The notes beneath the pieces were generated by a model. The model searched no databases. It saw nothing but the letters and a program-made list of their open reading frames with translations, and was not told where the DNA came from. The position numbers and the translations under genes are program-made. From contig CAZKRC010000003.1 in NCBI GenBank assembly GCA_964555105.1, positions 1 to 44,552 of the forward strand: a DNA stretch of 44,552 nt, in the 5' to 3' direction. Of the stretch, positions 8,277 through 42,668 are shown piece by piece. Each line of letters opens with the position of its first letter. Positions within the stretch are counted from its first letter, which is position 1. The DNA is from an uncultured Bifidobacterium sp. Its GTDB lineage: Bacteria > Fibrobacterota > Fibrobacteria > UBA11236.

Positions 8277-8287
8277 GGTGACGCCCG

Positions 8288-9013
8288 GTGAGTCTCCGTA
8301 ACGCCCTCGCCCACCTCACGTCCCTGCGGATTCCGCCGCGCACGCGCATTCCGATCGCGCACTCGCTCCACTATTTTCCCTGGGTGGGCGCGGCGCACGG
8401 CAGCCTCAACATCCTGGGCTTCATCGCCGCGTCGCAGGTTCTGCCCGTGCCGCTGGCCTGCCTGTTCGCCGTGCTGCTCCCGCAGGCGCTGGCGGGGTTC
8501 GGCCCCTGGCGCGGCACGCTGGAGGCGGCACAAGGTCGTCGCACCCGCGGACATCAATCCTTCGCGCCCGGCTTCCGCCCCGACCTGAAGGGCGTGGCGT
8601 TGGTGCTGGCACTCACGCTCGTCAAATGGTTTTCCCTGATGATCATCGCGCCCGACTGGCGGGTCCGGGCCGCCCTGGTCTTCCCCATTCTCGGCATGAG
8701 CGCGCAAACAGGGGCGTTCCTGCGCTCCGTGCGCATGCCCGGCCGCAGTCCGCTGCTGGTGCGCCGCCATCTCCGGGCCGGTTTCCTCAGCGGCGTTTCC
8801 CTCTTCCTCGTCTTTCTCTTCCCGCCGCCCGCGGCGGCGGCGATGCTGGTCGCGGTCGCGTTGGCGACGGGGCTGATCGTGCGCTTCCGGCATCCGCGCC
8901 ACGCGCCGCCACCCCGGCGCGAACTCACGCGCCAAACGGCAGGACTGGTGACGGAAATTTCCGAAGCCGCCATGCTGGCCGCGCTCGTTTTCGCCGGCTT
9001 CATCCTGTTGTGA
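8288..9013 (+). CDS. CobS-like polytopic membrane protein (divergent adenosylcobinamide-GDP ribazoletransferase fold?)
   Basis: GTG start, 241 aa, multiple TM segments. The N-terminus LTSLRIPPRT...YFPWVG resembles the CobS pattern F.SRLPVP...FPLIG, but the DG.AD-type motif is not recognisable. Confidence 0.4.
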   Translation: MSLRNALAHLTSLRIPPRTRIPIAHSLHYFPWVGAAHGSLNILGFIAASQVLPVPLACLFAVLLPQALAGFGPWRGTLEAAQGRRTRGHQSFAPGFRPDLKGVALVLALTLVKWFSLMIIAPDWRVRAALVFPILGMSAQTGAFLRSVRMPGRSPLLVRRHLRAGFLSGVSLFLVFLFPPPAAAAMLVAVALATGLIVRFRHPRHAPPPRRELTRQTAGLVTEISEAAMLAALVFAGFILL

Positions 9014-9134
9014 TCGACCGGTATCGGACCGGTGAGCGGGCGGCCCTGCGCCGCCCGGACCGGCCTGCGCCGCATCTTCCGGGTGCGCGCAGGCCTTTCC
9101 CCACCCGCATCAAACGCACCACCGCCGTGCGCGT

Positions 9135-9428
9135 TTACGCGAAGTCGTAGATCTTCACCTGCGTCCAGTAGTCCTTGAGTTCAAGAAAGCGCTGGTGGAT
9201 CTCATGCACCTGATAGGCGTCGTGACCCGCCGCATCGTCGAATACGGTGACCATGCCGTACGTGTAGGTGCGGTCGATCACCGGGCGATCGGTGTCCGCG
9301 GGCGTTCCGAACCATCCATGGCGGATCGAGGGGATGGTCGTCAGCGCACGACCGCGCGTTTCGAACTCGCGCACCTGCTCGGGGGTGAGATCGGGCTTCA
9401 ACCAGAAATAAACGGAATGAACGAACAT
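9135..9428 (-). CDS. Dabb (stress-responsive alpha/beta-barrel) family protein
   Basis: The 97-aa core MFVHSVYFWLKPDLTPEQVREFE...FDDAAGHDAYQVHEIHQRF matches the Dabb pattern. The track ORF extending to 9902 is an Arg/Ala-rich extension overlapping the next gene. Confidence 0.7.
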   Translation of the reverse strand: MFVHSVYFWLKPDLTPEQVREFETRGRALTTIPSIRHGWFGTPADTDRPVIDRTYTYGMVTVFDDAAGHDAYQVHEIHQRFLELKDYWTQVKIYDFA

Positions 9429-9568
9429 GGGAACTCCGGGAATGAAGTGACGGGTTGACGGAAAATCACGGAACGGTTTCGCGATCAGGGGGGTGGGGCC
9501 GGATGCGGCCGACATGATGAGGGGACGTGACGCCGCACCGGCGGCGGGAGCGTGGGGCCCACGGGTCA

Positions 9569-11023
9569 TCAGGCACGGTCGGGATGCCGTCCCTTCCGGG
9601 GCGGGGCGGTGATGACGGTTTCCGCGAACTCCGCCTTCCCCGCGATGCGCCCGCCGCGCGTCCTGCCGTCCTGCGTCCACGTTTCCACGTAAAAGCTCCA
9701 GAACGCGTTCGCGGCGGCGGCGTAGGAAAACTCCATCGCGCGCGCGCGCGCCGGGACACGCCACGCCTCGAGCCGGGCGGGATCGTTCACCAAGGCGAGC
9801 ATCGCGTCCCGCAACGCTTCCGGTTCCGTGTGGGAGAACACCATTCCGCACGCCTCCGGCACGATGATCTCCTGCGGGCCGCCCAGGTCGCTCACCAAGC
9901 ACGGCAGACCGCAGGCCAGCGCTTCCACCACGCTGTTGCCGAAGGTGTCCGCCAAACTGGGAAACACGAACAGGTCCGCGGACGCGAAGGCTCGCGCCAG
10001 CATTCCGTCCCGGAGGACGCCGGTGAAATGCGCACGGCCGCAGGACTGCAGCAGGGACTTCATGTCCTCAAGGTAGGGGCCGTCCCCCACGACGATCAGA
10101 CGGAGGTCGGGACGCGTCCGCAGCGCCTCCAGGAAAGCGTGCGCGAGCGCGGCGAGATTCTTTTCCACCGAGACGCGCCCCACGTACAACAGCTTCGGGC
10201 CGTCGTCGGGAATGCCGAAGTCCGTCCACACCTGCGGGTCGCGAAGGTCGGGACGGAAGAACGCGAGGTCGACGCCGCGGGGCAGCTTGCGAATGCGCGA
10301 CGGCGTCACGCCCATGGCGGCCACCTTGTCGCGATAGGCGTCGGAAGGCACGATCACCGGCCCCGCGATACGCGTGAAGGCGCGCGTCCAGAACTGCACG
10401 AGGCGCTTTCCCACGCGGCCTTGCATCAGCAGGTCGCTGTACACCATGATGTCGGTGCGGTAATGCGAAACCGTGGTGATGCCGGCGATCTTCGCCACGA
10501 TGAGACACAGGCTGCTCACGGGACCCGGGGTTTCGAACTCGATGACGTCCATCGGGTGCGCCCGCAAAAAATCCAGAAAGCTCTTGAGGCGCAACACCAC
10601 GAGCTCGCTTTGCGCGTAGCCGGCCTGATCCATGGAGAACCGTCCGGGCGCGAGGATCATCCGGTCGTCGGCGCCTTCGCGACGCGGGTGCCGTGTGTGG
10701 AATGCCGGCCCGAACAGCCAGGCGTCGCGGCCCGTGCGGCGCAGCTCGCGCAACTGGATGCGCGAAGCGAGGGCGATGCCGTTCACCTCATCGAGATTGT
10801 CGCTGACGCAGACCACCGCGGGTTCACACGATTCCCCCGCCCGCCGGGCGCGCTCTGCCGCGAGCGCGAAGCGGAGGCGGAGCATGTCCGGGAACTGGCT
10901 GAGCAGTTCCGCGAGGAAATACAACACGAAGCGGAGCACGCCCGGAGTTCCCCAAGGCTGGTGGGGGCGCGTACGGGACGGCTCCCCGGATGGAACGACG
11001 GCGGGCGCGGACATATCCTCCAA
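9569..11023 (-). CDS. GT-B family 4 glycosyltransferase
   Basis: LLYVGRVSVEKN and ADLFVFPSLADTFGNSVVEALACGLPCLVSDLGGPQEII form a GT4 signature. Confidence 0.8.
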   Translation of the reverse strand: MEDMSAPAVVPSGEPSRTRPHQPWGTPGVLRFVLYFLAELLSQFPDMLRLRFALAAERARRAGESCEPAVVCVSDNLDEVNGIALASRIQLRELRRTGRDAWLFGPAFHTRHPRREGADDRMILAPGRFSMDQAGYAQSELVVLRLKSFLDFLRAHPMDVIEFETPGPVSSLCLIVAKIAGITTVSHYRTDIMVYSDLLMQGRVGKRLVQFWTRAFTRIAGPVIVPSDAYRDKVAAMGVTPSRIRKLPRGVDLAFFRPDLRDPQVWTDFGIPDDGPKLLYVGRVSVEKNLAALAHAFLEALRTRPDLRLIVVGDGPYLEDMKSLLQSCGRAHFTGVLRDGMLARAFASADLFVFPSLADTFGNSVVEALACGLPCLVSDLGGPQEIIVPEACGMVFSHTEPEALRDAMLALVNDPARLEAWRVPARARAMEFSYAAAANAFWSFYVETWTQDGRTRGGRIAGKAEFAETVITAPPRKGRHPDRA

Positions 11024-25056: not shown

Positions 25057-25103
25057 TCGCAGGGGCGATTTGCGAATCACTCCTGGCCCCAATTTGAGGG
25101 CAT

Positions 25104-25137
25104 GAAAAAAGGCTTCCGCAAGGAAGCTTTTTTTGTT
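25104..25137. terminator. rho-independent, bidirectional-looking terminator
   Basis: aaaaaaGGCTTCCgcaaGGAAGCttttttt: a GC stem flanked by an A-run and a T-run. Confidence 0.6.
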
Positions 25138-25174
25138 GGTATGGTGGTTGATGCGACGGCTGAAACCTCGCGGG

Positions 25175-25235
25175 ATGTCGGAGCAAATGTCGGAGTAAAT
25201 ATGTCGGAGTAAATGTCGGAGTATGTGTCGGAACC
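25175..25235. repeat. five direct copies of TGTCGGA at 12/14/12/12-nt spacing
   Basis: Copies start at 25176, 25188, 25202, 25214 and 25226, giving (a)atgtcggag(t/c)a units, immediately upstream of the small membrane-protein gene. Confidence 0.8.
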
Positions 25236-25470
25236 TTCATCGAAAGGACCCGCCATGGTCGGTGAAATCTTTGGACTCTCGGTTCTCGCTCTGCTCGTTA
25301 TCCTCATCATTTACTGGCTGCCGGTGATTTGGGTCCTGGTCTCCAATCGCACGGAAGGTGCGACCAAGTTTGTTTGGTTCGTCGTGGCCTTCGTTTTCTC
25401 GTGGGTGAGGTTGATTGCGTTTTTGCTGCTCACATCTCCGAGAGGGAATCGACTCACGAATTCGTATTGA
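25231..25470 (+). repeat. direct repeat copy 1 (small membrane-protein gene plus 24-nt leader)
   Basis: Aligns with 31744-31983, from gaaccttcatcgaaagg to cgtattga. The 5' half is nearly identical and the 3' half is diverged. Confidence 0.85.
25255..25470 (+). CDS. 71-aa two-TM membrane protein (PLDc_N-like small membrane protein), paralogue 1
   Basis: MVGEIFGLSVLALLVILIIYWLPVIWVLVSNRTEGATKFVWFVVAFVFSWVRLIAFLLL. AAAGGA lies 7 nt upstream of the ATG. The family call is from memory of the pattern TM-charged loop-K..W-TM. Confidence 0.6.
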   Translation: MVGEIFGLSVLALLVILIIYWLPVIWVLVSNRTEGATKFVWFVVAFVFSWVRLIAFLLLTSPRGNRLTNSY

Positions 25471-25512
25471 CCCGCGCAGGCTTTTTTCGACCCCCGCGCA
25501 TGCGGCAGGGGT

Positions 25513-26898
25513 TCAAAAATCCAGAGGACTGACCACCTGGTTGCCGATGGACCGCACCGCGTGCGTATAAATCATCGTGGTCTCCACGCTCGAATGGCCC
25601 AGCAATTCCTGCACGGTGCGGATGTCGTATCCCGCCTGCAGCAAGTGCGTCGCGAAGCAATGCCGCAGCGTATGCGCCGAAGCCCGCTTCGCCAGTCCGG
25701 ATTCCAGCACCGCGGCGCGCATCGCCTTTTGAACATGCGACTCATGAAGATGGTACCGCCTGCGCTCGCCCGACTCCGGCACCCGCGTCAACATCCTCGC
25801 CGGGAATACCCACTGCCACGGCCATTCCCGGGGCGCGTTCGGATACTTGCGCTCGAGCGCATCCGGCAGAAACACCCCGCCATAGCCCACGGCCCTATCC
25901 CTCCCATGAAGGTCTTGAACTTCCCCCAGATGCCTTCTCAGGCCGGTCGCCAGCCGATCGGGCAGGGGGAGCGAACGGCTTTTATCCCCTTTACCCGCCT
26001 GAATCAAAAGTCGCCGGGAATCGAAATCAATGTCTTGCACGCGCAGACCCACGGCCTCGAAAAGCCGCAGCCCGCAACCGTACATCAAGCCGCCCAGAAG
26101 GTCGAAGGGAGGCGTCAGTCTGGCGAGGAGACGACTCACCTCGTCGCGACTCAGTACCACCGGAATGCGCGGTCGCCGTTGGGGCCTGGGAACGTCGCGC
26201 AGCCCCGAATATTCCAGGTCGAGCACCTTGGTGTACAAGAACAACAACGCATTGAAAGCCTGGTTTTGCGTCGAAGCCGAGACCGAGCGTTCCACGGCGA
26301 GGTAGGTCAAAAAGGCCTTGGCGTCTTCCGCCGAAATCTCCATCGGCGGCATGTCGCCGATGAATTCCCGAAAGCGGATGACCCAGTGCCGGTAGGCCTT
26401 AAGGGTCTTGGGGGAGCAATGACGGAGCTCCAGTTCGGCTGCCAGGCATCGGAAGGTTTCCGGCCAGCTTTGGGGCGCCTCGGATTTCGGGGGACGGCCT
26501 TCATTCGGGAATAGGGCCGCCCGCGACGACGTGGGCACGATGTCCGTATTCTTCGCCGGCTCCGCATTTCGTAGGATCGGAGAGTCTGGGAAAAGGCTTC
26601 GCAGCACCTCGATGGCCCGTTCCGCCTGCCGTACCTGGAAATCGGGTCGCCCGGAGGCGCGCAGATCGCCCAGGAAAACAGCCGAGGACTCCTTGAGGCT
26701 CGGGTCGCGCCCCCGTACGGAACACTCCGCCAAATAGTCCCGCAACCACTTGTGATAGAAAGGAACGTTGTTGGGGCCGATCCCCGCCCGTCCTTCAAGA
26801 GCCTTTTGAAAGGCCTCGCGCAGACTCGCATAAGTGGGACTCGCTGAAAGAGCATATTCCTCCGCAACTGGAGATCTGGAACCGGATGCTGAATTCAT
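25513..26898 (-). CDS. intI: integron integrase (IntI-type tyrosine recombinase) with an N-terminal extension
   Basis: VSASTQNQAFNALLFLY; the IntI-specific insertion LPDALERKYPNAPREWPWQWVFPA...RRRYHLHESHVQKAMRAAV; catalytic HTLRHCFATHLL, LLGHSSVETTMIYTH. Start set at MNSASGS with GGAG upstream; 27045 is the alternative. Confidence 0.9.
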   Translation of the reverse strand: MNSASGSRSPVAEEYALSASPTYASLREAFQKALEGRAGIGPNNVPFYHKWLRDYLAECSVRGRDPSLKESSAVFLGDLRASGRPDFQVRQAERAIEVLRSLFPDSPILRNAEPAKNTDIVPTSSRAALFPNEGRPPKSEAPQSWPETFRCLAAELELRHCSPKTLKAYRHWVIRFREFIGDMPPMEISAEDAKAFLTYLAVERSVSASTQNQAFNALLFLYTKVLDLEYSGLRDVPRPQRRPRIPVVLSRDEVSRLLARLTPPFDLLGGLMYGCGLRLFEAVGLRVQDIDFDSRRLLIQAGKGDKSRSLPLPDRLATGLRRHLGEVQDLHGRDRAVGYGGVFLPDALERKYPNAPREWPWQWVFPARMLTRVPESGERRRYHLHESHVQKAMRAAVLESGLAKRASAHTLRHCFATHLLQAGYDIRTVQELLGHSSVETTMIYTHAVRSIGNQVVSPLDF

Positions 26899-27104
26899 AA
26901 CCCGCTCCCCCCTTCCGTAGAGGCCATGACGTTCCCGTGAAAAACGGACTTTCAAAGCCATTGCGGAATTATCAGAAAACCGCAGCAATCCATCAGCCGA
27001 GACTGTGACAGCCGCCACGGATCTTTGGCCCCAAAGTTTGGACAAAAAGTCAAGGGGGACAAAGGCTGGCCAAGGGAAGGCACGAACAGCGGCGGTGCGC
27101 CGAC

Positions 27105-27134
27105 TTTACATTCAGATGTTTCTGGTGTTATACT
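27105..27134 (+). promoter_or_regulatory. candidate cassette promoter (Pc): TTTACA-18 nt-TATACT
   Basis: -35 TTTACA at 27105-27110 and -10 TATACT at 27129-27134, oriented toward the cassettes, about 105 nt upstream of the attI crossover. Confidence 0.4.
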
Positions 27135-27245
27135 GAAACGTTATAACATGTCGAACCTGAAGAAATCGGATGGGCTTCGCGGGGTATCCCGTGATATACT
27201 GAACGGCTCCGCGCTATACGGAACCGTTGAAGAATATTGTTAACT
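27129..27245 (+). other. candidate attI with crossover G27239|T27240
   Basis: Three direct repeats of TATAC(T/G)GAA(A)C at 27129, 27195 and 27215, then the core GTTAACT at 27239-27245, whose complement is the R'' of cassette 1. Confidence 0.55.
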
Positions 27246-27257
27246 ATCACCAAGCTA

Positions 27258-27671
27258 ATGAATACGCTCTCTAACCTCGGATCATGGGCCTCCATCATCG
27301 CGCTCCCTATAACGTTTTGGGTTTTAATAGAAACGTACCGCATAAAGCAACATTTTTCGAATCGCGCTCGGCTGCCTGAGATACTAAAGAAGTTGACACA
27401 GCACTCGCGCACCTACTTAGCCAATATTAAACCTGAGAAAGACATTAACCTTGCCTATAAGGACGCTGCAATAATTTTAGGGATTCTCCAAATATTTCGA
27501 TCAAAAACGATATCTAAAAAAGTTGCCTCATTAGATGAAGGCATAACCAAAATTGCACGGATAACCGCAAATAACCAACCAAACGCGAATGAACTTTGGG
27601 AGGCTTACACATCGATAACTAAGATCATCACTTCACTTGAGCAGATTGAACGCGACATGGCTTGGAGCTGA
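27258..27671 (+). CDS. cassette 1 ORF A: hypothetical protein with one N-terminal TM helix and a helical domain
   Basis: MNTLSNLGSWASIIALPITFWVLIETY... The ATG lies 18 nt after the crossover. AT-rich codon usage unlike the host. Confidence 0.6.
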   Translation: MNTLSNLGSWASIIALPITFWVLIETYRIKQHFSNRARLPEILKKLTQHSRTYLANIKPEKDINLAYKDAAIILGILQIFRSKTISKKVASLDEGITKIARITANNQPNANELWEAYTSITKIITSLEQIERDMAWS

Positions 27672-27674
27672 CTA

Positions 27675-28052
27675 ATGCCTAATGAATCTGAAATAAATCG
27701 ACTGTTGAACGACTTAACAAGGGCGACCGCATCAGGTGGTCTTTCCTGGGAGTTGTTGTCCGCCCCGGCCTCGCTTTCGGCTGGAACGGACGATCTATTC
27801 CCTACTTATTTGCAAACTGGGTATAAATCCCAGATAATTGGGCTATATGAGAAAAGATTTCAGAGCTATTTCCCGGATTTGGACAACTTCTTGTGGGACG
27901 CTCGGATTGGATTAATATTTCTCGATAGGCAAAGCCGCATTACGTGGCAATACGACGAAAAAAGTGGTGCTCTTGGCAATCTTTTTGAGATCGCAAAAGA
28001 ATCAGCAACAGGAATTGACGACATCTTTGCAAACTTACTCAGCGATAGTTAA
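27675..28052 (+). CDS. cassette 1 ORF B: hypothetical soluble 125-aa protein
   Basis: Starts 3 nt after the stop of ORF A (tgactaATG). Its TAA stop lies inside the attC R'' box. Confidence 0.6.
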   Translation: MPNESEINRLLNDLTRATASGGLSWELLSAPASLSAGTDDLFPTYLQTGYKSQIIGLYEKRFQSYFPDLDNFLWDARIGLIFLDRQSRITWQYDEKSGALGNLFEIAKESATGIDDIFANLLSDS

Positions 28053-28110
28053 CAACCGGCTTCAGCGGTCGTTCCGCTCCGCGGCCCGCCGCTGATCCGG
28101 ATCGTTAGCT
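28047..28110 (+). other. attC site 1 (64-bp family)
   Basis: R'' AGTTAAC and R' GTTAGCT. Arms CCGGCTTCAGCGG / CCGCTGATCCGG pair with a one-base asymmetry. Confidence 0.8.
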
Positions 28111-28120
28111 GGAGCGATAT

Positions 28121-28672
28121 ATGAGGATAAAAAAATCCAAATCAATGTTTGCCCTAATCGGATGCGTCCTCCTCCTTATCCTGAACGGCAAAGTGGATGG
28201 ACGGGAGGCAGCTCAAGCGTCTCGATCTAATGAAATCGCGGCGACAGCCAGCGACCTTTTCAGCGTACTTGATCGCCAAGCCCAAAGCTTCCGGCCTGCC
28301 ACCCGTAAAGAATGGCTCGCTACCCTTCAATATTATGGGTTCAGCAAACGCAATGGACTGGACAGCTCAGCTTCATGGGATAAGGTTGATTCTACAGGTA
28401 CTCTTCGAGCCACCGCATTCTATAAACAAGACGAAACGAGCATTTGGCTTTTCTTTTTTCCATCAGCCCAGGTGCCGATGGCCGCCCCCGTCTTAGAAGC
28501 GTTGCTACGCAACGCTGAGTCAACGACAATAGAGGACGCCGGAACCGTCGAAGTACGTTTTAAACCAAAGCATTTCAATTTTGGAGGCAAGCAAGGCACT
28601 CGAGTCGAGACTGCTCGACTCCGCGAATCTAATGTGATAATTCGTAGGGCCATCATTGAATGGCGAGATTGA
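28121..28672 (+). CDS. cassette 2: hypothetical lipoprotein or secreted protein
   Basis: MRIKKSKSMFALIGCVLL contains an LIGC lipobox-like motif. GGAG lies 7 nt upstream of the ATG. Confidence 0.6.
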   Translation: MRIKKSKSMFALIGCVLLLILNGKVDGREAAQASRSNEIAATASDLFSVLDRQAQSFRPATRKEWLATLQYYGFSKRNGLDSSASWDKVDSTGTLRATAFYKQDETSIWLFFFPSAQVPMAAPVLEALLRNAESTTIEDAGTVEVRFKPKHFNFGGKQGTRVETARLRESNVIIRRAIIEWRD

Positions 28673-28717
28673 AATGTTGACGTCACTGATTGGCAATGAT
28701 GATTCATATAAATCACC

Positions 28718-28781
28718 AGCTAACAACCGGCTCCAGCGGGCGTTCCGCTTCGCGGCCCGCCGCTAAGCCGGACCGTTAGGC
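28718..28781 (+). other. attC site 2 (64-bp family)
   Basis: R'' AGCTAAC is the exact complement of GTTAGCT at the cassette start. R' is GTTAGGC. About 85% identical to attC1. Confidence 0.85.
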
Positions 28782-28794
28782 AAGCAGAGATCCT

Positions 28795-29523
28795 ATGAAT
28801 CCATCAGCAATTTTTGAAGCCTTTGATCTAGACAAGAAGACGGAGCTAGATAAGGTCTTTTATCTTGCAATTGCTTCACAGCTAGATAATCCAAGTAGCG
28901 AGTTCCATATAACTGACGTGTATCAGTGGTTTGATGAAATTGGACTTTCAAGACCAAACCAAAGCCGTCTGGTAAGCAGGATCAAGAAGGACAAACGATT
29001 TATAAAAGGGGCCAGTGCAAATGGATTCAAAGTTTCGGCAACAGCAATAAAAGCGTCAAAGCAACTTTTCAAGGACTTTCAGATTGTCGAGGAGCCGAAG
29101 GTAAAAGATCAATCTATTCTTCCCATAGCCGTCTACTCGGGTACAAGGAAGTACATCGAAACGATATGTAACCAAATCAATGTAGCCTTTGAGCATGCGG
29201 TTTTTGATGGATGCTCGGTGATGATGAGGCGCTTAATAGAGGTTTTGCTGATTTCTTGTTACGTCAACGAGGGTTCTGAAGCTGAGATAACTGACTCCGA
29301 TGGCAATAGATTTCCGTTATCAAAAATCATCAATTACACACTTTCAAATAGTAAATTTGGACTGGGCAAGACATGCAAAGATTTTCTGCATTCGTTTAGA
29401 ACGCTCGGGAATTTGTCAGCCCACGAAATCTATTACACATGCAAGAGAGCCGAACTCACTGCTGTAGCAACTGAGTTCCGAGTGTCCGTAGAAGAATTGC
29501 TTTTTAAATCAGGACTAAAATAA
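28795..29523 (+). CDS. cassette 3 ORF A: wHTH-like N-terminus plus DUF4145/HEPN-like C-terminal domain
   Basis: The C-terminal half IETICNQINVAFEHAVFDGCSVMMRRLIEVLL ... FRTLGNLSAHE fits the DUF4145 pattern (R..GN...H), recalled from memory. Confidence 0.6.
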   Translation: MNPSAIFEAFDLDKKTELDKVFYLAIASQLDNPSSEFHITDVYQWFDEIGLSRPNQSRLVSRIKKDKRFIKGASANGFKVSATAIKASKQLFKDFQIVEEPKVKDQSILPIAVYSGTRKYIETICNQINVAFEHAVFDGCSVMMRRLIEVLLISCYVNEGSEAEITDSDGNRFPLSKIINYTLSNSKFGLGKTCKDFLHSFRTLGNLSAHEIYYTCKRAELTAVATEFRVSVEELLFKSGLK

Positions 29524-29533
29524 GGAGAAGGAA

Positions 29534-30061
29534 GTGACTCAATCAGTATTTAAGATAAACCTCTCTACTGGCGATGTAGAAATTTCAGGCTCCGAGGAAT
29601 TTGTATCCGCATGTATAGACAGGCTGCCACTTGTAATGAGAGAGCTTGGGCAAGACACGTTGATGGCAAAGGCCCCAGGAAAAAACCCAACAGCAGGCAA
29701 TCAGAATGGTGGCCAAGACGCAGGGAATTCTCAAGGGGCTACAAACAGTTTGGGCGTACCCGACTCATTTGGTGAATGGAAACAGAAGTTCAAAGACGGG
29801 CTTACTCAGGATCAGAAAGTTCTCATGTCAGGATACTATTGCCAAGCACAAAACCCTGAGAACATTTTCAAAACTAAAGAAGCAAATGATATTTTGAAGA
29901 ACCACGGAATCAAGGTTGCGAACGCCGCCAATAATCTAAAGTCGCTCGAAGAGAATAAATACGTGTTTATTGCTAAGAAGTCCGGAAAGTTGAAATTATA
30001 TCGAGTGACAGAGCAGGGACTTCAGCATCTAAACGCACAGATGATGCAACAGAGTGCCTAA
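29534..30061 (+). CDS. cassette 3 ORF B: hypothetical 175-aa protein with a G/N/Q-rich linker and wHTH-like C-terminus
   Basis: Starts 10 nt after ORF A (GTG start, GGAGAAGGAAG upstream). Its stop lies inside the attC3 R'' box. Confidence 0.55.
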   Translation: MTQSVFKINLSTGDVEISGSEEFVSACIDRLPLVMRELGQDTLMAKAPGKNPTAGNQNGGQDAGNSQGATNSLGVPDSFGEWKQKFKDGLTQDQKVLMSGYYCQAQNPENIFKTKEANDILKNHGIKVANAANNLKSLEENKYVFIAKKSGKLKLYRVTEQGLQHLNAQMMQQSA

Positions 30062-30160
30062 CAAATTCTTGCAGACGGACCAAACCATGCTGTCATGTCT
30101 TTTGCAAAGAACGCAAAAGCCACGCCAGCACGCTTTGGCCGCTGAAGAAAGGCGTTCGGC
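30056..30160 (+). other. attC site 3 (105 bp, heterologous type)
   Basis: R'' GCCTAAC is the exact complement of GTTAGGC at the cassette start. R' is GTTCGGC. TTCTTgCAGaCGGaCCAAA pairs with TTTGGCCGCTGAAGAA, leaving single extrahelical bases. Confidence 0.75.
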
Positions 30161-30166
30161 TATATT

Positions 30167-30637
30167 ATGACCGCAGAAGAACTCGCCGCCCATTTCAAGA
30201 AGCTGCATTTGGATCGCTACGAGATCCAAGAGAGAGGCCGACGCACCAATGTGCCTCGGCAGATCCTAAGCGCTGATGAGCGCAATGCTATTCTACGGAA
30301 AACAGATTCACGGTGCCATATTTGCGGAGGATTCATCGATGGCAAGCCATGGCACGCGGATCATGTCCTTTCTCACAGCAGCGGAGGAGCTCATCATATC
30401 GACAACTACCTGCCTGCACACTCGCTTTGTAACAACTACCGTTGGGACTACACTCCAGAGGAGTTTCAATACATCCTCAAACTCGGCGTTTGGCTCCGCA
30501 CCCAGATCGAAAGGCGCACATCAGTCGGAAAGATTGCGGCACTGGCGTTTATCGCATACGAGTCAGCTCGTGTGAGGCGGCGGAAGCGTTCCCCAATAAT
30601 AGAAGAAGCCGAACAAGACGCTGCAGCCAACCCCTAG
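30167..30637 (+). CDS. cassette 4: small HNH endonuclease
   Basis: CHICGGFIDGKPWHADHVLSHSSGGAHHIDNYLPAHSLCN is an HNH/His-Me finger. The 3' end of the ORF lies inside attC4. Confidence 0.75.
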   Translation: MTAEELAAHFKKLHLDRYEIQERGRRTNVPRQILSADERNAILRKTDSRCHICGGFIDGKPWHADHVLSHSSGGAHHIDNYLPAHSLCNNYRWDYTPEEFQYILKLGVWLRTQIERRTSVGKIAALAFIAYESARVRRRKRSPIIEEAEQDAAANP

Positions 30638-30731
30638 CAGCGACTCGCGGTTTTGTTCGGACTTCCGATTCACAAAAACCTTTCCACAAGAGTTCGGCGT
30701 CCGTTCGGGGTGGCTGAGCTTGGCGTTAGTA
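30608..30731 (+). other. attC site 4 (124 bp, heterologous type)
   Basis: R'' GCCGAAC is the exact complement of GTTCGGC at the cassette start. R' is GTTAGTA. AAGacgCTgCAGCCAaCCCC pairs with GGGGTGGCTGAGCTT, leaving bulged bases. Confidence 0.7.
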
Positions 30732-30750
30732 ACCTGGGAGTGGAGCAATA

Positions 30751-31470
30751 ATGAAACGGGTAAGCCTTCTGTCAGTTACGCTTATGGCGATGCTTGTCGG
30801 CTGCGCAACCAATATCAAAATGTCGGTTGTCGAGAATGAAAACGTCACTAAGATTTATAATTCGGGGTACGAGGTCGGTCTTTCCAAAAAGACGGCCTTG
30901 GTTGGCGTATCCGGAGAAAAGACGTCCGATGGATACTTGAGGGTTTGGGTCTACTGCCGGAATGATGGCGCTGAGCCGCTCAATCTCATTCCCGAGAATG
31001 TGTCTGTTCAAGGATATGGCTATGGAGGTCAGCGAGCGCTATTTGTATACCCCCCGGATAGATTTCTCAGAAAGCTTCGAAATTCGCAGGCCTGGGCGTT
31101 AGCTCTTCAACGACTGTCCTCGGGCATCGACGCGTACAACGCAGGAAACAAATCTTCAACTACGTACAGCAGCTCATACAACTCGAATTATGGGTCAACC
31201 TACGGAACATCAACAACTTATAGCTATGATAACGCCGCCGCATACCAGGCTAGGGCAAAAAATCAAGAGCTACTTAACCATCAAGAAGCACAATACAATT
31301 CGATATACAATGCTGTTGAAAATGGAATCCTTAAAAGTGTAACTCTTTTCCCTGGTCAGTTTATTTCTGGAAATGTCATGGTAAAATATTCTATGAATTA
31401 TTCGGATAGCCTGCTGATTTTGGTGCCAGTTGGAAACGATGTTCACAAAATCAAACTCGTGAGAAAATAA
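30751..31470 (+). CDS. cassette 5: hypothetical lipoprotein with an S/T/Y/N-rich low-complexity segment
   Basis: MKRVSLLSVTLMAMLVGCATN contains an LVGC lipobox. GGAG lies upstream of the ATG. Confidence 0.65.
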   Translation: MKRVSLLSVTLMAMLVGCATNIKMSVVENENVTKIYNSGYEVGLSKKTALVGVSGEKTSDGYLRVWVYCRNDGAEPLNLIPENVSVQGYGYGGQRALFVYPPDRFLRKLRNSQAWALALQRLSSGIDAYNAGNKSSTTYSSSYNSNYGSTYGTSTTYSYDNAAAYQARAKNQELLNHQEAQYNSIYNAVENGILKSVTLFPGQFISGNVMVKYSMNYSDSLLILVPVGNDVHKIKLVRK

Positions 31471-31474
31471 TGGT

Positions 31475-31537
31475 TGTGAACAACCGGCTCCAGCCGACGG
31501 CCCGCCTCGCGGCCCGCAGCTGATCCGAACGTTCTCC
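31475..31537 (+). other. attC site 5 (64-bp family), last in the array
   Basis: AACAACCGGCTCCAGC...GCGGCCCGCAGCTGATCCGAACGTT aligns with attC1 and attC2. R'' TGTGAAC is only 4/7 complementary to the cassette start GTTAGTA. R' GTTCTCC is off-consensus. Confidence 0.65.
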
Positions 31538-31630
31538 TGATCAAACTTACCGAAACGCTGGCGGCACAGCAGAAGGACTTTTTGCAGGAAGCCTGAAGTG
31601 CCCTGCTTCGCCTGCACCGCGACGGATATG

Positions 31631-31668
31631 AAGGCCTCCTGGTTGTCCGGGTGGCCTTTTTTGTGTGT
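31631..31668 (+). terminator. hairpin plus T-run after a short in-frame coding remnant
   Basis: AAGGCC-16 nt-GGCCTT followed by TTTTGTGTG, downstream of a stop at 31594-31596. Confidence 0.4.
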
Positions 31669-31743
31669 TCCATCATGGCTTTGGCACTGCTCCGTACTTT
31701 CCACTTGTGGAAAACCCGGGACGTTGTATACTAAACAGTATCT

Positions 31744-31983
31744 GAACCTTCATCGAAAGGCCCCACAATGGCCGGTGAAATTTTTGGACTCTCGGTTCTC
31801 GCTCTGCTCGTTATCCTCATCATTTACTGGCTCCCGGTTATTTGGGTCCTGGTCTCCCCTCGTACGGAAGGCGTGACCAAGTTCGCCTGGTTCATCATTG
31901 CCTTGGTCTTTTCTTGGGTAGGCCTCATCGCGTTCTTGCTGCTTGCACCTACGGGAGGAAATCGGGCCTCAGGGCCGTATTGA
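31744..31983 (+). repeat. direct repeat copy 2 (small membrane-protein gene plus leader)
   Basis: Aligns with 25231-25470. Confidence 0.85.
31768..31983 (+). CDS. 71-aa two-TM membrane protein, paralogue 2
   Basis: MAGEIFGLSVLALLVILIIYWLPVIWVLVSPRTEGVTKFAWFIIALVFSWVGLIAFLLL. 55 of 71 residues are identical to the 25255 copy by my count. Confidence 0.65.
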   Translation: MAGEIFGLSVLALLVILIIYWLPVIWVLVSPRTEGVTKFAWFIIALVFSWVGLIAFLLLAPTGGNRASGPY

Positions 31984-32008
31984 TGAGGTGAAGGGCACGT
32001 GAATTATG

Positions 32009-32040
32009 AAGGCTCCTCCGCAAACGGGGAGCCTTTCGTT
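32009..32040 (+). terminator. rho-independent terminator after paralogue 2
   Basis: AAGGCTCC-11 nt-GGAGCCTT followed by TCGTT. Confidence 0.55.
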
Positions 32041-32114
32041 ATGAGTGACCTTACCGGGGCTTTTGCGGAGGATATGGGGGATATTCTACGCAAAACGGCT
32101 CCCTTTAGGCATTT

Positions 32115-32188
32115 TGAGCCGATAGACTGCAATATTCGGCTCAGTTATTCTCCTTTTATGAGCCGAATAAGGATTATATTCGGCTCAT
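32115..32188 (+). promoter_or_regulatory. two related palindromes (TGAGCCGAATA / TATTCGGCTCA) upstream of and overlapping the fic start
   Basis: IR1 at 32115-32143 is TGAGCCGATA-N8-TATTCGGCTCA. IR2 at 32158-32188 is ATGAGCCGAATA-aggatta-TATTCGGCTCAT, a perfect 12-bp arm. The right arm of IR2 contains the first two bases of the fic ATG and its loop contains AAGGA. Confidence 0.6.
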
Positions 32189-33293
32189 GGTCCGCTACAA
32201 CTGGCAGCTCGATAATTGGCCAGACTTCACCTTCGACATCGCGAAGGTGGAAGACGCGCTATTTGCCTTTGCAGAAAATGCCGGACGCACCACGGGCGCT
32301 TGGCAGGCCTTGCCAGAGGCCGCTCGTTGGGAATCGTTGATCGACATGCTAACGGCCGAGGCCTTGAAGACCTCGAAGATCGAGGGGGAGCACCTCGACC
32401 GCGAGGACGTTCGTTCTTCGCTCCGGAAGAACCTCGGCTTACATGACGACAGCCGCCGGGTCAAGGACAAGCGGGCGGCCGGCATTGCCGCGATGATGAT
32501 CAACGCCCGCAGCACGTGGAATGAACCTTTGACACGAGAGACGCTATTCGCGTGGCACGAGATGCTTCTCGCAGAGAATCATGGCATGCGTGTCGGATCC
32601 TGGAGAACCCACGAGGAGCCGATGCAAGTGGTCTCGGGAGCGATCGGCCGGGAGAAGGTCCATTACGAGGCGCCCCCTTCTTCCCGCGTGCCGGTCGAGA
32701 TGGAGCGCTTCATCGATTGGTTCAACGAGGCACCAAACACTGGCAAGGCGATGCGTCTTGCGCCCATCCGCTGCGCCGTCGCGCACCTTTACTTCGAGTC
32801 CATTCACCCATTCGAGGATGGCAACGGTCGTATCGGTCGTGCCGTGGCGGAGAAAGCCCTCTCGCAAGGGATGGGACGCCCTGTACTCTTGAGTCTTTCG
32901 GAAACCATTGAGGCGGACCGGAAGGCCTATTACGAGGCTTTGAAGCAGGCCCAGCGATCCCACGACGTGACGGAGTGGATGCGCTATTTCACCGATGTCG
33001 TTTTACGCGCCCAGGTTCGTGCCGAAGCGATGATCGATTTTACGGTGCGCAAGGCTCATTTCTTCGATCGCTTTCGCGATACCCTGAGCGAGCGCCAACG
33101 CGTCGCGATCGGGAAGATGCTGGTGCACGGTCCCGGAGGTTTGGGGGACGGCATCAGCGCGGCGAAGTACGCCACGATGACAAAGGTTTCGAAGGCTACG
33201 GCTACACGCGATCTGCAAGAACTGCTCTCGTCAGGAGTCATCGAGCGCTTGGAGGGCGGAGGCCGCAATACGCGGTATCGCGTGGCTCTTTAG
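32187..33293 (+). CDS. Fic/DOC family protein, class II (N-terminal DUF4172-like region with intramolecular inhibitory motif, C-terminal wHTH)
   Basis: Active-site HPFEDGNGRIGR. TSKIEG matches the inhibitory (S/T)xxxE(G/N) motif. N-terminal YNWQLDNWPDFTFD. Confidence 0.85.
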   Translation: MVRYNWQLDNWPDFTFDIAKVEDALFAFAENAGRTTGAWQALPEAARWESLIDMLTAEALKTSKIEGEHLDREDVRSSLRKNLGLHDDSRRVKDKRAAGIAAMMINARSTWNEPLTRETLFAWHEMLLAENHGMRVGSWRTHEEPMQVVSGAIGREKVHYEAPPSSRVPVEMERFIDWFNEAPNTGKAMRLAPIRCAVAHLYFESIHPFEDGNGRIGRAVAEKALSQGMGRPVLLSLSETIEADRKAYYEALKQAQRSHDVTEWMRYFTDVVLRAQVRAEAMIDFTVRKAHFFDRFRDTLSERQRVAIGKMLVHGPGGLGDGISAAKYATMTKVSKATATRDLQELLSSGVIERLEGGGRNTRYRVAL

Positions 33294-33399
33294 AGCCGCA
33301 AAATCCTCAAGTGGTTCGACTGGATGTATCGTTGCTGGTGAAATTCGATGTCATGAAGTGAAGTTGATTTTCACGCGTGGCAGTAAATTTCACACGAAA

Positions 33400-35067
33400 A
33401 TGCATCGTATTTCCAGAGAGCCCCCTACCAAGCAGTGGCACGACATTCGCCAAGCAGTCCTGACCCGGGATAACCACACCTGTATTTCGTGCGGCACCGT
33501 TCCGGAAACAGGCGAAACCGACATCCATCACCTTGTTCCCCGGTCAGCCGGCGGACTGGACGACCCCAGCAACCTGATCACCCTCTGCGACGGTTGTCAT
33601 GCAGCACGGCATCCGAACTTGCAGACCTCACTCTCCCGCCGCATGCTCGAACGCTGGGGACTCCGACTGGCGCACTGGCTTGATCGTCAGAATGAACTAC
33701 GAAATATCGACGAGACCCTGGGCGATGCATTGCGGATGCTGGGGGTCCAACGATTCAGGCACCCACAACTTGAAGTTGTTCTGGCCGCTCTTCGCGGCGA
33801 ATCCTTGCTGCTCGTAAGTGCAACCGGATCGGGAAAGTCCCTGTGCTTCCAGCTCCCCGTTCTGCTCAACCACAAGGTCGGGGTGGTCATATCGCCTCTT
33901 AAGGCCCTGATGAGCCAACAAGTGACCGGTCTTCAAGAGAAACAGATCCCCGGTACGTTCATTAACGGAGACCTCAGTCCCGCCGAAAAAAAACTTCGGT
34001 ACAAGCTCCTCCACAACGGCGTGTACAAGTTCCTTTACTGCACTCCTGAAAGATTCGACCCGAATATGGTCAGACCTGCCGAAGTGGAAGAGATCAGCCG
34101 TCTACGTCCCAGCTACCTCATCATCGACGAAGCGCATTGCATTGACCGCTGGGGTAAAGACTTCCGCCCCAATTATGGGAGACTCGGGAATGTCAGGAAT
34201 GCACTTGGAAAACCTCCGGTTCTGGCTTTCACAGCAACAGCCGGCGTCGATAGCCAAAAGAGAATCTTGCAATCGATCGGAGTCCCGCACGCGCGTGTGA
34301 TCGTCACAGGGGTCAATCGCCCCAACATTGCGATGGCTCGGCTTCCAGACCTGGATGAGCTGAGGCGATACCGTCTTGTCATCGACCTTATACGAGCCAT
34401 GCCTTCAGGTCGAGCAATGATCTTCGTCCCTACCGTTCGGATAGGCCATCGACTGCAAACCGGGCTACATGATCTAGGGCTCGAAATACCATTTTACCAC
34501 TCTCAACTTGGTACGGCTAACGAACGGGACCTGCTACTCGGAAGATTTGTTGGTCGTCTTTCACCGTCGTTGAATCTCATAATCTGCACAAATGCTTTCG
34601 GAATGGGTCTTGATGTTCCAGACGTCAGGCTTGTGATTCATTGGCAGCACCCCGCATCTGTGGAAGATTACCTGCAAGAGTTTGGGCGGGCTGGTCGTGA
34701 TGGCAACCGCTCCATCGCAATTCTCTTTACGGACCGCAAGGACGAAGGATTATTGCGATACATGGCGGAAAAATCCGCCTCGGGTATAGATGGCCCGACT
34801 GATTCACACAACGAAGCATTGCAGGCACGCTACGCGTCGATCTCCCAAATAAAAAAGGTGGCGCTGGCAAGAAGACATTGCTTTCGCAAATTGCTCGTTC
34901 ATTATTTCGGAGGAAATGTCTCAAAGAACCACAAATCCCTCTCTATGAGAATTGTTTCCTGGATTTTCGAAAAAAGGATTCAGACCCAAAAAGTGAAACG
35001 CTGCTGTGACCATTGTGACAACGTCGATCAGGAAAATATTGTCGCGTGGGCGCGCAGCATACTTTAG
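33400..35067 (+). CDS. HNH endonuclease fused to a RecQ-family DEAH helicase core (Zn-binding module present; no recognisable WH or HRDC)
   Basis: HNH: CISCG...DIHHLVPRSAGGLDDPSNLITLCDGCHAARH. Helicase: SATGSGKSLCFQLP, IIDEAHCI, FTATA, CTNAFGMGLD, QEFGRAGRDG. Zn motif: CFRKLLVHYFG...CCDHCD. Start at ATG 33400, with GTG 33358 as the alternative. Confidence 0.85.
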   Translation: MHRISREPPTKQWHDIRQAVLTRDNHTCISCGTVPETGETDIHHLVPRSAGGLDDPSNLITLCDGCHAARHPNLQTSLSRRMLERWGLRLAHWLDRQNELRNIDETLGDALRMLGVQRFRHPQLEVVLAALRGESLLLVSATGSGKSLCFQLPVLLNHKVGVVISPLKALMSQQVTGLQEKQIPGTFINGDLSPAEKKLRYKLLHNGVYKFLYCTPERFDPNMVRPAEVEEISRLRPSYLIIDEAHCIDRWGKDFRPNYGRLGNVRNALGKPPVLAFTATAGVDSQKRILQSIGVPHARVIVTGVNRPNIAMARLPDLDELRRYRLVIDLIRAMPSGRAMIFVPTVRIGHRLQTGLHDLGLEIPFYHSQLGTANERDLLLGRFVGRLSPSLNLIICTNAFGMGLDVPDVRLVIHWQHPASVEDYLQEFGRAGRDGNRSIAILFTDRKDEGLLRYMAEKSASGIDGPTDSHNEALQARYASISQIKKVALARRHCFRKLLVHYFGGNVSKNHKSLSMRIVSWIFEKRIQTQKVKRCCDHCDNVDQENIVAWARSIL

Positions 35068-40772: not shown

Positions 40773-42668
40773 ATGAGAAAATGGCGTATTGAGGATTCGG
40801 CCGAGCTGTACAACACGCGCGGCTGGGGGATCGGTTACTTCGGCATCAACGAAAAGGGCAACGCGACGGTGGCGCCCTTGCGTGAACGGGGGCCGGCCAT
40901 CGACCTCAAGGACATCATGGATGAGCTGGCGCTGCGCGACACCAACGCGCCGGTGCTGCTGCGCTTTCCCGACATCCTCGACAACCGCATCGAGAAAATC
41001 TCCCAGTGCTTCGACAAGGCCGGACGCGAGTTCGGCTTCAAGGCCAAGGCGTTCAACGTTTATCCCATCAAGGTGAACCAGCAGCGTCCCGTCCTCGAAG
41101 AGATGGTGCGGCACGGCAAGAAGTTCAACATCGGCCTTGAGGCGGGCTCCAAGCCCGAGCTGCATGCGGTGCTGTCCATCATGGACAACCCCGAGTCGCT
41201 GATCATCTGCAACGGCTACAAGGACGCCGAGTTCATCGAGCTCGCCCTGCTGGCCCAGAAGATGGGCAAGCGCATCTTCATCGTGGTGGAAAAACTCAAC
41301 GAACTGAAGCTGATCCGCGACGTGTCGCGGGCGCTGAACGTGCGCCCCAACATCGGGATGCGCGTCAAGCTGGCGAGCTCGGGGAGCGGCAAGTGGGAAG
41401 AGAGCGGTGGCGACCAGAGCAAGTTCGGCCTCAATTCGTCCGAGCTTCTGGAGGCCGTGGAGTTCGCGCAGTCCGAAGGTTTGGGCGACTGCCTGCGCCT
41501 GATCCACTTCCACCTGGGCAGTCAGATCACCAACATCCGCAAGATCAAGTCGGGCCTGCGCGAGGCCGCGCAGTTCTACGTGCAGCTGCGCCGCATGGGC
41601 GTGCCGGTGGACTTCGTGGACGTGGGCGGCGGCCTCGGCGTGGACTACGACGGCACGCGCAGCGCGAACGCCAACAGTGTGAACTACAGCATCCAGGAAT
41701 ACGCCAACGACGTGGTGTATTCCATGGTGAGCGCGGCCGACAAGGCTGACCTCCCCCACCCCAACGTGGTGGCCGAATCGGGCCGCGCGCTCACCGCACA
41801 CCACTCGGTGCTGGTGTTCAACGTGCTGGAAACCACCGCGCTGCCGCTGTGGAACGAGCAGGACTACCCGGTGAGCGAGAACGACCCCGAGGCCCTGCGC
41901 GAACTGCACGCCATTTTCCGCAACCTGTCCAACAACGGGCTTCTCGAAGCCTGGCATGACGCGTTGCAGATCCGCGAGGACGTGCTCGACGGTTTCAACC
42001 TCGGACTGTTCGACCTGAAAACGCGCGCCGTCGCCGAACGCCTGTTCTGGAGCATCGCGCACAAACTGCACCGCCTCGCGGGCAGCATGAAGAACCCGCC
42101 CTTCGAGTTGCAGAACCTCTCGAAGCTGCTGGCGGAGAAGTATTTCTGCAACTTCTCGCTGTTCCAGTCCCTCCCCGACGCCTGGGCCATCGACCAGATC
42201 TTCCCGATCATGCCGATCCAGCGCCTGAACGAAGAGCCCACGACCCTGGCCACCCTGCAGGACATCACCTGCGACTCCGACGGCCAGATCGACCACTTCA
42301 TCCATTCGGGCGAACTGTCGCGCAGCTTGCCGCTGCACCCGCTCAAGGACGGGGAATCGTACTACCTCGGCGCGTATCTCGTGGGGGCCTACCAGGAAAT
42401 CCTGGGCGACTTGCACAACCTGTTCGGCGACACCAACGCCGTGCACGTGGTGGTCGACAAGGACGGATACCGCATCGAACAGGTACTCGACGGCGAGTCG
42501 GTCGCCGACGTGCTCGACTACGTGCAGTACTCGGCGAAGAAGCTCGTCCGCGACATGGAAACCTGGGTCTCCGCCTCCGTCAAGGAAGGCAAGATCACCT
42601 TGCAGGAAGGCAAGGAGTTTTTGGCGAACTACCGCTCGGGGCTGTACGGTTACACGTATCTGGAGTAG
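40773..42668 (+). CDS. speA: biosynthetic arginine decarboxylase
   Basis: MRKWRIEDSAELYNTRGWGIGYFGINEKGN N-terminus; YPIKVNQ PLP-lysine block; 631 aa. Confidence 0.9.
   Translation: MRKWRIEDSAELYNTRGWGIGYFGINEKGNATVAPLRERGPAIDLKDIMDELALRDTNAPVLLRFPDILDNRIEKISQCFDKAGREFGFKAKAFNVYPIKVNQQRPVLEEMVRHGKKFNIGLEAGSKPELHAVLSIMDNPESLIICNGYKDAEFIELALLAQKMGKRIFIVVEKLNELKLIRDVSRALNVRPNIGMRVKLASSGSGKWEESGGDQSKFGLNSSELLEAVEFAQSEGLGDCLRLIHFHLGSQITNIRKIKSGLREAAQFYVQLRRMGVPVDFVDVGGGLGVDYDGTRSANANSVNYSIQEYANDVVYSMVSAADKADLPHPNVVAESGRALTAHHSVLVFNVLETTALPLWNEQDYPVSENDPEALRELHAIFRNLSNNGLLEAWHDALQIREDVLDGFNLGLFDLKTRAVAERLFWSIAHKLHRLAGSMKNPPFELQNLSKLLAEKYFCNFSLFQSLPDAWAIDQIFPIMPIQRLNEEPTTLATLQDITCDSDGQIDHFIHSGELSRSLPLHPLKDGESYYLGAYLVGAYQEILGDLHNLFGDTNAVHVVVDKDGYRIEQVLDGESVADVLDYVQYSAKKLVRDMETWVSASVKEGKITLQEGKEFLANYRSGLYGYTYLE

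Follow-up and report, generated by a model that had tools for sequence, protein, structure and literature searches.

A complete integron is defined as an integron integrase gene (intI) accompanied by at least one attC recombination site (Cury et al. 2016, PMC4889954). Two described systems frame the integron proposed here, which lies in a 44,552-nucleotide (nt) stretch of contig CAZKRC010000003.1 (GenBank assembly GCA_964555105.1; this whole stretch, numbered along its forward strand, is the window). The first is that of Vibrio cholerae with its integrase IntIA (IntI4; 2A3V), which our locus matches in the alignment of the integrase protein, the IntI-specific insertion, the catalytic residues, a divergently oriented intI, an attI site beside intI, attC hairpins, and crossover at G|TT. 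The second is the class 1 integron, whose integrase IntI1 belongs to the same family and which has the same overall layout.

We propose that positions 25513-31537 of the window are a complete, functional chromosomal integron of an uncultured Fibrobacteria bacterium, and we place the probability of this reading at roughly 0.93. The proposal is based on the identity of the integrase (IntI), five attC sites, both boundaries of the cassette array, and the replacement of cassettes in natural populations. We infer, beyond these, the strand used in recombination, the promoter, and that the enzyme is active today. All of the testable defining features of an integron are there, with the sole exception of the promoter, which is a consensus match.

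Integrase, attC sites and array boundaries

The integrase gene occupies 25513-26898 on the minus strand and encodes 461 amino acids. IntI passes the TIGR02249 "integron integrase" model (379 bits, cutoff 265) and falls far below the cutoffs (about 330 bits) of the XerC and XerD models, with 150 and 136 bits, which speaks against a place among XerC/D. It carries the Pfam domains Phage_int_SAM_4 and Phage_integrase, and residues 205-508 (in a 510-residue frame) align to residues 13-317 of 2A3V (265.8 bits, E 7.9e-78), an alignment that includes the IntI-specific insertion ALERKYPNAPREWPWQWVFPA...RRYHLHESHVQKA near patch III. Residues R278, K303, H409, R412, H435, and Y444 (461-residue numbering) are invariant in an alignment of 50 homologues. 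The open reading frame (ORF) is intact and uninterrupted, with a host-like G+C content of 61.5%. An earlier sequence-only reading of this DNA had recognised an IntI-type recombinase from the insertion and the catalytic set, and both were borne out; its choice of start, TTG 27045 (510 residues), fared less well. The open frame does extend upstream of ATG 26898 to that codon, but gene callers in other samples give a 461-residue product (99.6-100% identical) starting at ATG 26898, and a purine-rich GGGGGGAG stretch precedes this ATG. For these two reasons we take ATG 26898 as the likelier start.

When crossover takes place at G|TT, the final six bases of the circular-form R' come to stand at the 5' end of the cassette, and from this established biology comes the rule that the start of each cassette should complement that cassette's own R'' box. 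Standard IntI insertion, excision, and attC x attC deletion all keep the resulting chain intact. Four of the cassettes follow the rule at 7 of 7 positions: cassette 1 (GTTAACT at 27239, AGTTAAC at 28047), cassette 2 (GTTAGCT at 28104, AGCTAAC at 28718), cassette 3 (GTTAGGC at 28775, GCCTAAC at 30056), and cassette 4 (GTTCGGC at 30154, GCCGAAC at 30608), with exact complements that run to 10, 9, 8, and 8 nt, respectively. All of these heptamers, and those of cassette 5 with the 4/7 match discussed below, stand where the sequence-only reading had placed them. The rest of the window has 16,490 GTTNNNN/NNNNAAC pairs spaced as in cassettes, and 0.6% of them match at 7/7, so that the probability of at least four such matches in five is about 7e-9, far beyond chance. 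Only the observed order, 1 of the 120 permutations of starts against R'' boxes, attains 32 of 35 matched bases, and three of the R'' heptamers are single-copy in the window. Both cassettes of a related integron (L019) obey the same rule, at 10/10 and 8/8 when read off its sequence.

The attC sites themselves were located with covariance models. A first model, from an RNAalifold consensus (R1), kept only 9 base pairs and was discarded. A pattern of the 64-nt attC family was then used to find near-identical sites in metagenome-assembled genomes (MAGs) of many labelled phyla, and these together with the window's three family members gave model R2, which matched only attC1, attC2, and attC5 in the window. 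In the foreign-MAG loci R2 found additional attC sites of greater diversity, lying on a single strand, which identifies those loci as cassette arrays. Model R3, built here from 23 attC sites of other genomes only, was run over the whole 44.5 kb window, on both strands and with filters off. It returned exactly five plus-strand sites, with boundaries that agree to the base with those of the sequence-only reading; the covariance support comes from R3 and not from the model of IntegronFinder. The next-best match in the window has 11.4 bits (E about 2), besides weaker minus-strand echoes of attC1, attC2, and attC5, and the plus-strand scores of these three (69, 68, and 54 bits) exceed those of their echoes (20, 20, and 13 bits), which defines the polarity of the sites.

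Three of the sites are short: attC1 (28047-28110, 64 nt; 69 bits, E 1.2e-14), attC2 (28718-28781, 64 nt; 68.4 bits, E 1.8e-14), and attC5 (31475-31537, 63 nt; 53.6 bits, E 7.7e-11), the last site, at whose crossover, G31531|TT, the array ends distally. The longer two are attC3 (30056-30160, 105 nt; 33.3 bits, E 7.7e-6) and attC4 (30608-30731, 124 nt; 31.6 bits, E 2e-5, with exact ends), the least certain of the five. From one site to the next the distance is at most 1.3 kb, within the 4 kb used as a criterion, and attC1 is close to intI, about 1.1 kb from its start. Folded as single-stranded DNA and scored against shuffles, the bottom strands of attC1 (-19.9 kcal/mol, z -4.1), attC2 (z -2.4), attC3 (z -7.2), and attC5 (z -3.9) fold better than shuffled sequence, with bulged bases on the R''/L'' arm. 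For attC3 the bottom strand reaches -33.6 kcal/mol, as against -22.1 for the top, and has three bulged bases in its 3' half.

Within the 64-nt family (consensus YAACAACCGGCTGCAGCGGACGGTCCGCTGCGCGGCCCGCCGCTGAACCGGAGCGTT, from which the window's three copies differ at several positions), attC1, attC2, and attC5 have similarities of 100%, 89%, and 73%. Both attC3 and attC4 carry the family motifs AACAA-N4-(C)TGCAGC and GCTGA-N5/6-GCGTT (R''/L'' and L'/R'), as seen in the R3 alignments, and differ from the family mainly by central insertions of 57 and 72 nt; hence the earlier description of these two sites as unrelated in sequence has to be corrected. Near-identical 64-nt copies occur in MAGs labelled Gemmatimonadota, Acidobacteriota, Nitrospiraceae, Myxococcales, Anaerolineales, and delta- and Gammaproteobacteria. 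The consensus YAACAACCGGCTGCAGCGGACGGTCCGCTGCGCGGCCCGCCGCTGAACCGGAGCGTT is itself nearly invariant in the arrays of eight loci (L002, L003, L004, L006, L008, L009, L011, and L012), where its neighbours are mostly unrelated genes. Two MAGs, one labelled Gemmatimonadota and the other Myxococcales, share a glyoxalase-like cassette with this attC type at 88% identity.

Both ends of the array are fixed by contigs from other metagenomes. The attI site (27127-27245, plus strand; crossover G27239/T27240) is delimited by direct repeats and by these comparative breakpoints. Its TATAC(T/G)GAA repeats, at 27129, 27195, and 27215, are the sole three copies in the whole window and are reminiscent of the direct repeats to which the integrase binds in attI1. 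Five contigs, which represent three related platforms, namely L020 and L021 (99% identical to the window), L017 and L018 (IntI 69% identical), and L019 (IntI 62% identical), have in common ...CCGTT(G/C)AA(G/T)AATATTGTT; homology stops exactly at ...AATATTGTT, after the GTT at 27239-27241, and unrelated cassette sequence follows. L020 (99.3% identical) ends at 27241, while L021 is 99.4% identical over 25432-27241 and then continues, after the attI G|TT, into a different first cassette. Over its first 27 nt this cassette equals the cassette start at the attI of L017 and L018, so one cassette start is found at two different platforms. This start, GTGCGTAAGAATAAAACAAAAGCTGCG, lies at positions 1-120 of L021 and 1-27 of L017/L018, 27 nt being the overlap available.

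At the distal end, five contigs (L026-L030) encode a small protein identical to that of 31768-31983 and match the window only rightwards of GTT|CTCC (31531). Upstream they hold a different last cassette with its own attC of the same box type and an ORF that, read from sequence alone, is DUF1801-like. Since the junctions of L021 and of L026-L030 both fall at G|TT, attC5 is the true end of the array, and replacement of cassettes has taken place at either end. The cassettes appear to be mobile units exchanged at this platform, an enzymatic step to which the junctions point, and the integron is apparently still active. Exact-protein look-ups with the citrate synthase, the SoFic-like protein described below, and the cassette 5 protein found no second copy of the contig. 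Contigs from public metagenomes sufficed, on their own, to place attI and the distal array end with single-base precision and to reveal natural cassette replacement.

The layout is that of one long minus-strand ORF (25513-27045) and seven co-oriented plus-strand ORFs (27258-31470). In the mechanism we envisage, intI would be transcribed leftwards, divergently from the array. Cassettes would enter as circles whose attC, single-stranded and folded into a hairpin from the bottom strand, is recombined by IntI with double-stranded attI DNA at G27239|TT, and they would be excised by recombination between two attC sites. Rightward transcription of the five co-oriented cassettes would start from a promoter in the interval of intI and attI, for which 27105-27134 is the candidate. 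The platform sits in a variable, low-G+C, defence-rich interval that has a citrate synthase gene on one side and a gene for an MFS transporter on the other. In its core (IntI, attI, five attC-bounded cassettes, and G|TT crossover at these coordinates) the sequence-only reading stands, all of its sequence facts having been reproduced.

Cassette genes and the region upstream of intI

The five cassettes, all on the plus strand, have a G+C content of 43-54%, compared with 65% in the left flank. Cassette 1 (27240-28104; G+C 44.7%) holds ORFs at 27258-27671 (137 amino acids) and 27675-28052 (125 amino acids), and cassette 2 (28105-28775) a single ORF at 28121-28672 (183 amino acids). Cassette 3 (28776-30154) again has two, at 28795-29523 (242 amino acids) and, as its partner, 29534-30061 (175 amino acids). 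In cassette 4 (30155-30725) an ORF at 30167-30637 (156 amino acids) runs into attC4, and cassette 5 (30726-31531) holds an ORF at 30751-31470 (239 amino acids). Within cassettes 1 and 3 the ORFs are only 3 and 10 nt apart, which excludes a lost attC between them. The N-termini of the cassette 2 and cassette 5 proteins look, to the eye, signal-peptide-like and lipoprotein-like, respectively.

PADLOC returned no match for any cassette protein, Pfam and NCBIfam none for those of cassettes 1 and 2, and no family match, Pfam included, was obtained for that of cassette 5 or for the 175-residue partner in cassette 3. The 242-residue protein of cassette 3 carries a DUF4145 domain (PF13643, 25.6 bits, cutoff 23.1), assigned to the HEPN RNase family (PMC3710099), and has the motif FRTLGNLSAH (R202-x7-H210), the R-x7-H spacing found in the RAZR defence protein (PMC13017515). 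It is reasonable to regard the cassette 3 gene pair as a candidate toxin/abortive-infection pair. The HNH endonuclease of cassette 4 is recognised by PF01844 (E 2.6e-6) and by PHROG HNH families (to E 5e-14); it had been taken as the sole cassette product that was not hypothetical, a statement that the DUF4145 domain overturns. Integron cassettes are now yielding defence or toxin functions (bioRxiv 10.1101/2024.07.02.601686), and those described here, with the HEPN-type gene pair of cassette 3, the HNH nuclease of cassette 4, and three units that have no assigned function, are candidates of this kind.

The cassette 5 protein has only five homologues among 5.8 billion proteins. The closest non-identical one (51%), at 4642-6840 of L031, is encoded directly downstream of an RVT_1 reverse transcriptase gene (446 amino acids), outside an integron, in a contig where phage and insertion sequence (IS) genes are found as well. 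This hints that the family may act with a reverse transcriptase-based system.

Two elements upstream of the array deserve description. The candidate cassette promoter Pc (27105-27134, plus strand) reads TTTACA-18-TATACT, with a TG before the -10 hexamer, as in extended -10 promoters. It matches the consensus at 10 of 12 positions, is among the two best such sites in 25100-32200, and is directed into the array; L017 holds a similar element. A palindrome at 27004-27019, 106-121 nt upstream of the intI start, has the form TGTGA-N6-(T/C)CACG, with CCACG in the window and a perfect TGTGA-N6-TCACG in L020 and L021. Its core, GTGA-N6-TCAC, is kept in the window, L020/L021, L017/L018, and L019 (IntI identity down to 62-69%) despite diverged surrounding DNA. 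The palindrome may be a regulator site, its half-sites being suggestive of a CRP/FNR-like pattern.

Genomic setting and alternative explanations

The host assignment is in keeping with an arginine decarboxylase gene (40773-42668) whose product is 93-95% identical to Fibrobacteria MAG proteins. Housekeeping genes flank the integron, and the same left and right flanks occur in contigs from several samples. Between the citrate synthase and MFS genes (25.06-36.2 kb) the G+C content is low, and this interval contains the integron, small membrane-protein genes, and the SoFic-like and HNH-helicase genes. The latter two, at 32187-35067 and directly downstream of the integron, encode a DUF4172-Fic protein (PADLOC SoFic match, E 1e-47) and a protein with HNH and SF2/RecQ-like helicase domains (full-length DpdF model match, 611 bits). 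The platform is thus chromosomal but in a variable, defence-rich spot.

On either side of the integron lies one copy of a 227-nt direct repeat, the left at 25225-25451, just beyond the 3' end of intI, and the right at 31738-31964, about 200 nt beyond attC5 (both plus strand). Each copy consists of a paralogous gene for a small two-helix membrane protein and the 20-30 nt upstream of it, and the two are 84% identical overall, 96% over the central 80 nt, and 74% over the last 92 nt. Between the terminator of the citrate synthase gene and the left of these small-protein genes, at 25175-25235, units of about 12 nt, ATGTCGGAG(C/T)AA, form a short tandem array. The nearest longer relative (L022), with flanking genes at about 80% DNA identity, has no integron between the citrate synthase and MFS genes and carries other variable genes there. 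These include, at 2203-2757, a gene for a 184-residue protein that shares a C-terminal module with the 227-nt-repeat proteins. In L022 the citrate synthase gene (at 2032) has its final ~147 nt duplicated about 1.1 kb downstream (3135-3281), the trace expected of an element integrating into the 3' end of this gene; the locus looks like an insertion hot spot. Unlike L022, the window has no duplication of the citrate synthase 3' end. Nor does it contain a tRNA gene or a match to an Rfam family, so there is no tRNA-linked island boundary.

In light of this setting, might the integron be a recent arrival? It may have come with a horizontally acquired island, or may move as a unit, for example by homologous recombination between the 227-nt repeats, and we regard this as possible though doubtful. 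The state of the locus in L022, with its other variable genes and duplicated citrate synthase end, would fit such an event, as would the low G+C of the whole interval with its SoFic-like and DpdF-like defence genes, the bracketing repeats with their near-identical centres, a complement of only five cassettes, and an attC type that crosses phyla. Against it, the G+C of intI is that of the host, both flanks recur in several samples, no empty-site or circular form was found, and none of the island ORFs scanned matched a transposase, a plasmid gene, or a Tn402-type tni gene. In addition, repeats that are only 84% alike suggest an old duplication or two paralogues.

The preferred reading, a functional integron, must also be set against one in which the integron is decaying, its sites and integrase still recognisable and its recombination at an end. 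This is highly improbable: although attC5 is the most diverged family member (73%) with a weak R box, the chain is broken at cassette 5, and attC4 folds poorly, intI is intact with every catalytic residue and is 99.6-100% conserved in other samples, and the two ends of near-identical platforms hold different cassettes. That there is no integron at all, only an Xer-type or phage-type tyrosine recombinase beside genes with unrelated palindromic repeats (REP-like elements or terminators), is refuted. Tyrosine recombinases do have a common catalytic domain, and the XerC and XerD models do match partially, but at less than half of their cutoffs, while the integron model is well exceeded; moreover, the IntI-specific insertion is present, the window's repeats match attC models from other arrays in the correct polarity, and population breakpoints fall exactly at G|TT.

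Several observations count against a complete and functional integron, or soften its support. Cassette 5 breaks the chain, with GTTAGTA (30725) matching TGTGAAC (31475) at only 4/7; its attC5 R box may be weak in the circular form or may have changed after capture. The folding energy of attC4 is not significant (z = -0.75), and its minimum-energy fold (-20.9 kcal/mol) pairs R'' with an alternative R' box, GTTCGGC at 30692-30698, where the canonical hairpin ending at 30731 has -19.0 kcal/mol, a difference of 1.9; R3 picks the canonical form, with R' at 30725, over that at 30692. The bulged folds previously claimed for attC3 and attC4 are significant for the former and do not stand out by energy for the latter. 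The sequences that built R3 are independent of the window but its ancestry is not, R3 being descended from R2, which was partly trained on attC1, attC2, and attC5. Finally, the candidate Pc is a consensus match only, and promoter-like sites in the region number 8, no excess over the 6.1 +/- 2.2 expected from shuffles.

Other R' boxes were considered for attC4, at 30655 (GTTCGGA), 30692 (GTTCGGC), and 30703 (GTTCGGG), and none of them mends the cassette 5 chain (4-5/7). ATTCACA at 30668 has 6 of 7 positions complementary to attC5, but lacks the G, and a match of this quality arises by chance about one time in five within about 150 nt.

Comparison with known integrons

A departure from V. cholerae IntIA is at the N-terminus, where the present IntI has about 150 extra residues with a second SAM-like four-helix domain. 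By hhalign, this domain (residues 23-101, window 26596-26832) and the SAM-like domain next to it are homologous (probability 93%, E 2.4e-7), and AlphaFold2 models it with a pLDDT of about 90 and a four-helix pattern matching that of residues 145-225; a disordered linker of about 30 residues separates the two. All 120 nearest homologues, long forms of 411-617 amino acids, have the extra domain, which is therefore not special to this locus, and two homologues (P0007 and P0008) seemingly have three SAM-like modules, judging from sequence. A single-sequence search with the domain among 1.84 billion representatives gave mainly short repeat-protein matches and was uninformative, and a literature search found no description of an extra N-terminal four-helix domain in IntI.

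What might the role of this domain be? It could add a DNA contact, for which the three TATAC(T/G)GAA repeats of attI are a candidate target; if so, attI recognition would be changed relative to IntI1 or VchIntIA. A broader suggestion, which we consider unlikely on balance, is that this IntI belongs to a large uncharacterised IntI subclass with a duplicated N-terminal SAM-like domain, and/or that the platform can be gained or lost through the 227-nt repeats.

Environmental long-form integrases from Deltaproteobacteria/Desulfobacterota, Binatia, Nitrospiria, and Pseudomonadota MAGs (45-57% identical, 411-617 amino acids) carry the N-terminal extension as here, and many are already named "integron integrase" at NCBI or JGI. 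Closer relatives (P0002-P0004, 62-73% identity) are unnamed proteins, all of them encoded on short contigs of 2-3.5 kb. L025, a related 3.75-Mb Fibrobacteria genome, has, at 7485-10360, two tandem intI-like genes of 507 and 451 codons, both with SAM_4 and Phage_integrase domains and with small opposite-strand genes upstream; the covariance models made here found no attC site at that locus. No paper describing a Fibrobacter integron with attC was found in a full-text literature search.

How, then, should the integron be classified? The sequence-only reading called it a sedentary-type platform that had also captured foreign cassettes. Sedentary arrays are large (tens to hundreds of cassettes) and have highly similar, host-specific attC sites; here there are five cassettes with both ends mapped, the attC lengths span 63-124 nt, the sites that are alike are 73-89% identical, and the 64-nt family occurs in several phyla. 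A chromosomal location conserved across the species or genus is also expected of them; here the flanks recur across samples, yet the nearest longer relative lacks the integron at this locus. The mobile classes 1-5 are defined by a named-class integrase with a transposon or plasmid link. With 294 bits, this integrase does not reach the cutoff (435) of the class 1 equivalog model NF011946 and so is not class 1, and no Tn402/tni, qacEdelta1/sul1, or resistance cassettes were found among the ORFs scanned. The integron is thus neither a usual sedentary chromosomal integron nor a class 1-5 mobile integron.

Its short attC sites of 60-64 nt, with the central ...CCGC(T/C)(T/C)CGCGG... loop, are, we assume, comparable to those of the aadA type. 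Sites of the attC kind group by environment and not by host phylogeny (Ghaly et al. 2021, PMC8352920), and the 64-nt family of the window, which spans several labelled phyla, resembles a cross-taxon type of soil and sediment. Compared with V. cholerae, there are 5 cassettes in place of about 180, heterogeneous attC sites in place of uniform VCRs, and a Fibrobacteria MAG as host. Our analysis adds a cleanly delimited, apparently active integron from an uncultured Fibrobacteria lineage; it leaves the understanding of integrons in general unchanged, this one being a well-formed yet ordinary case of a well-known system.

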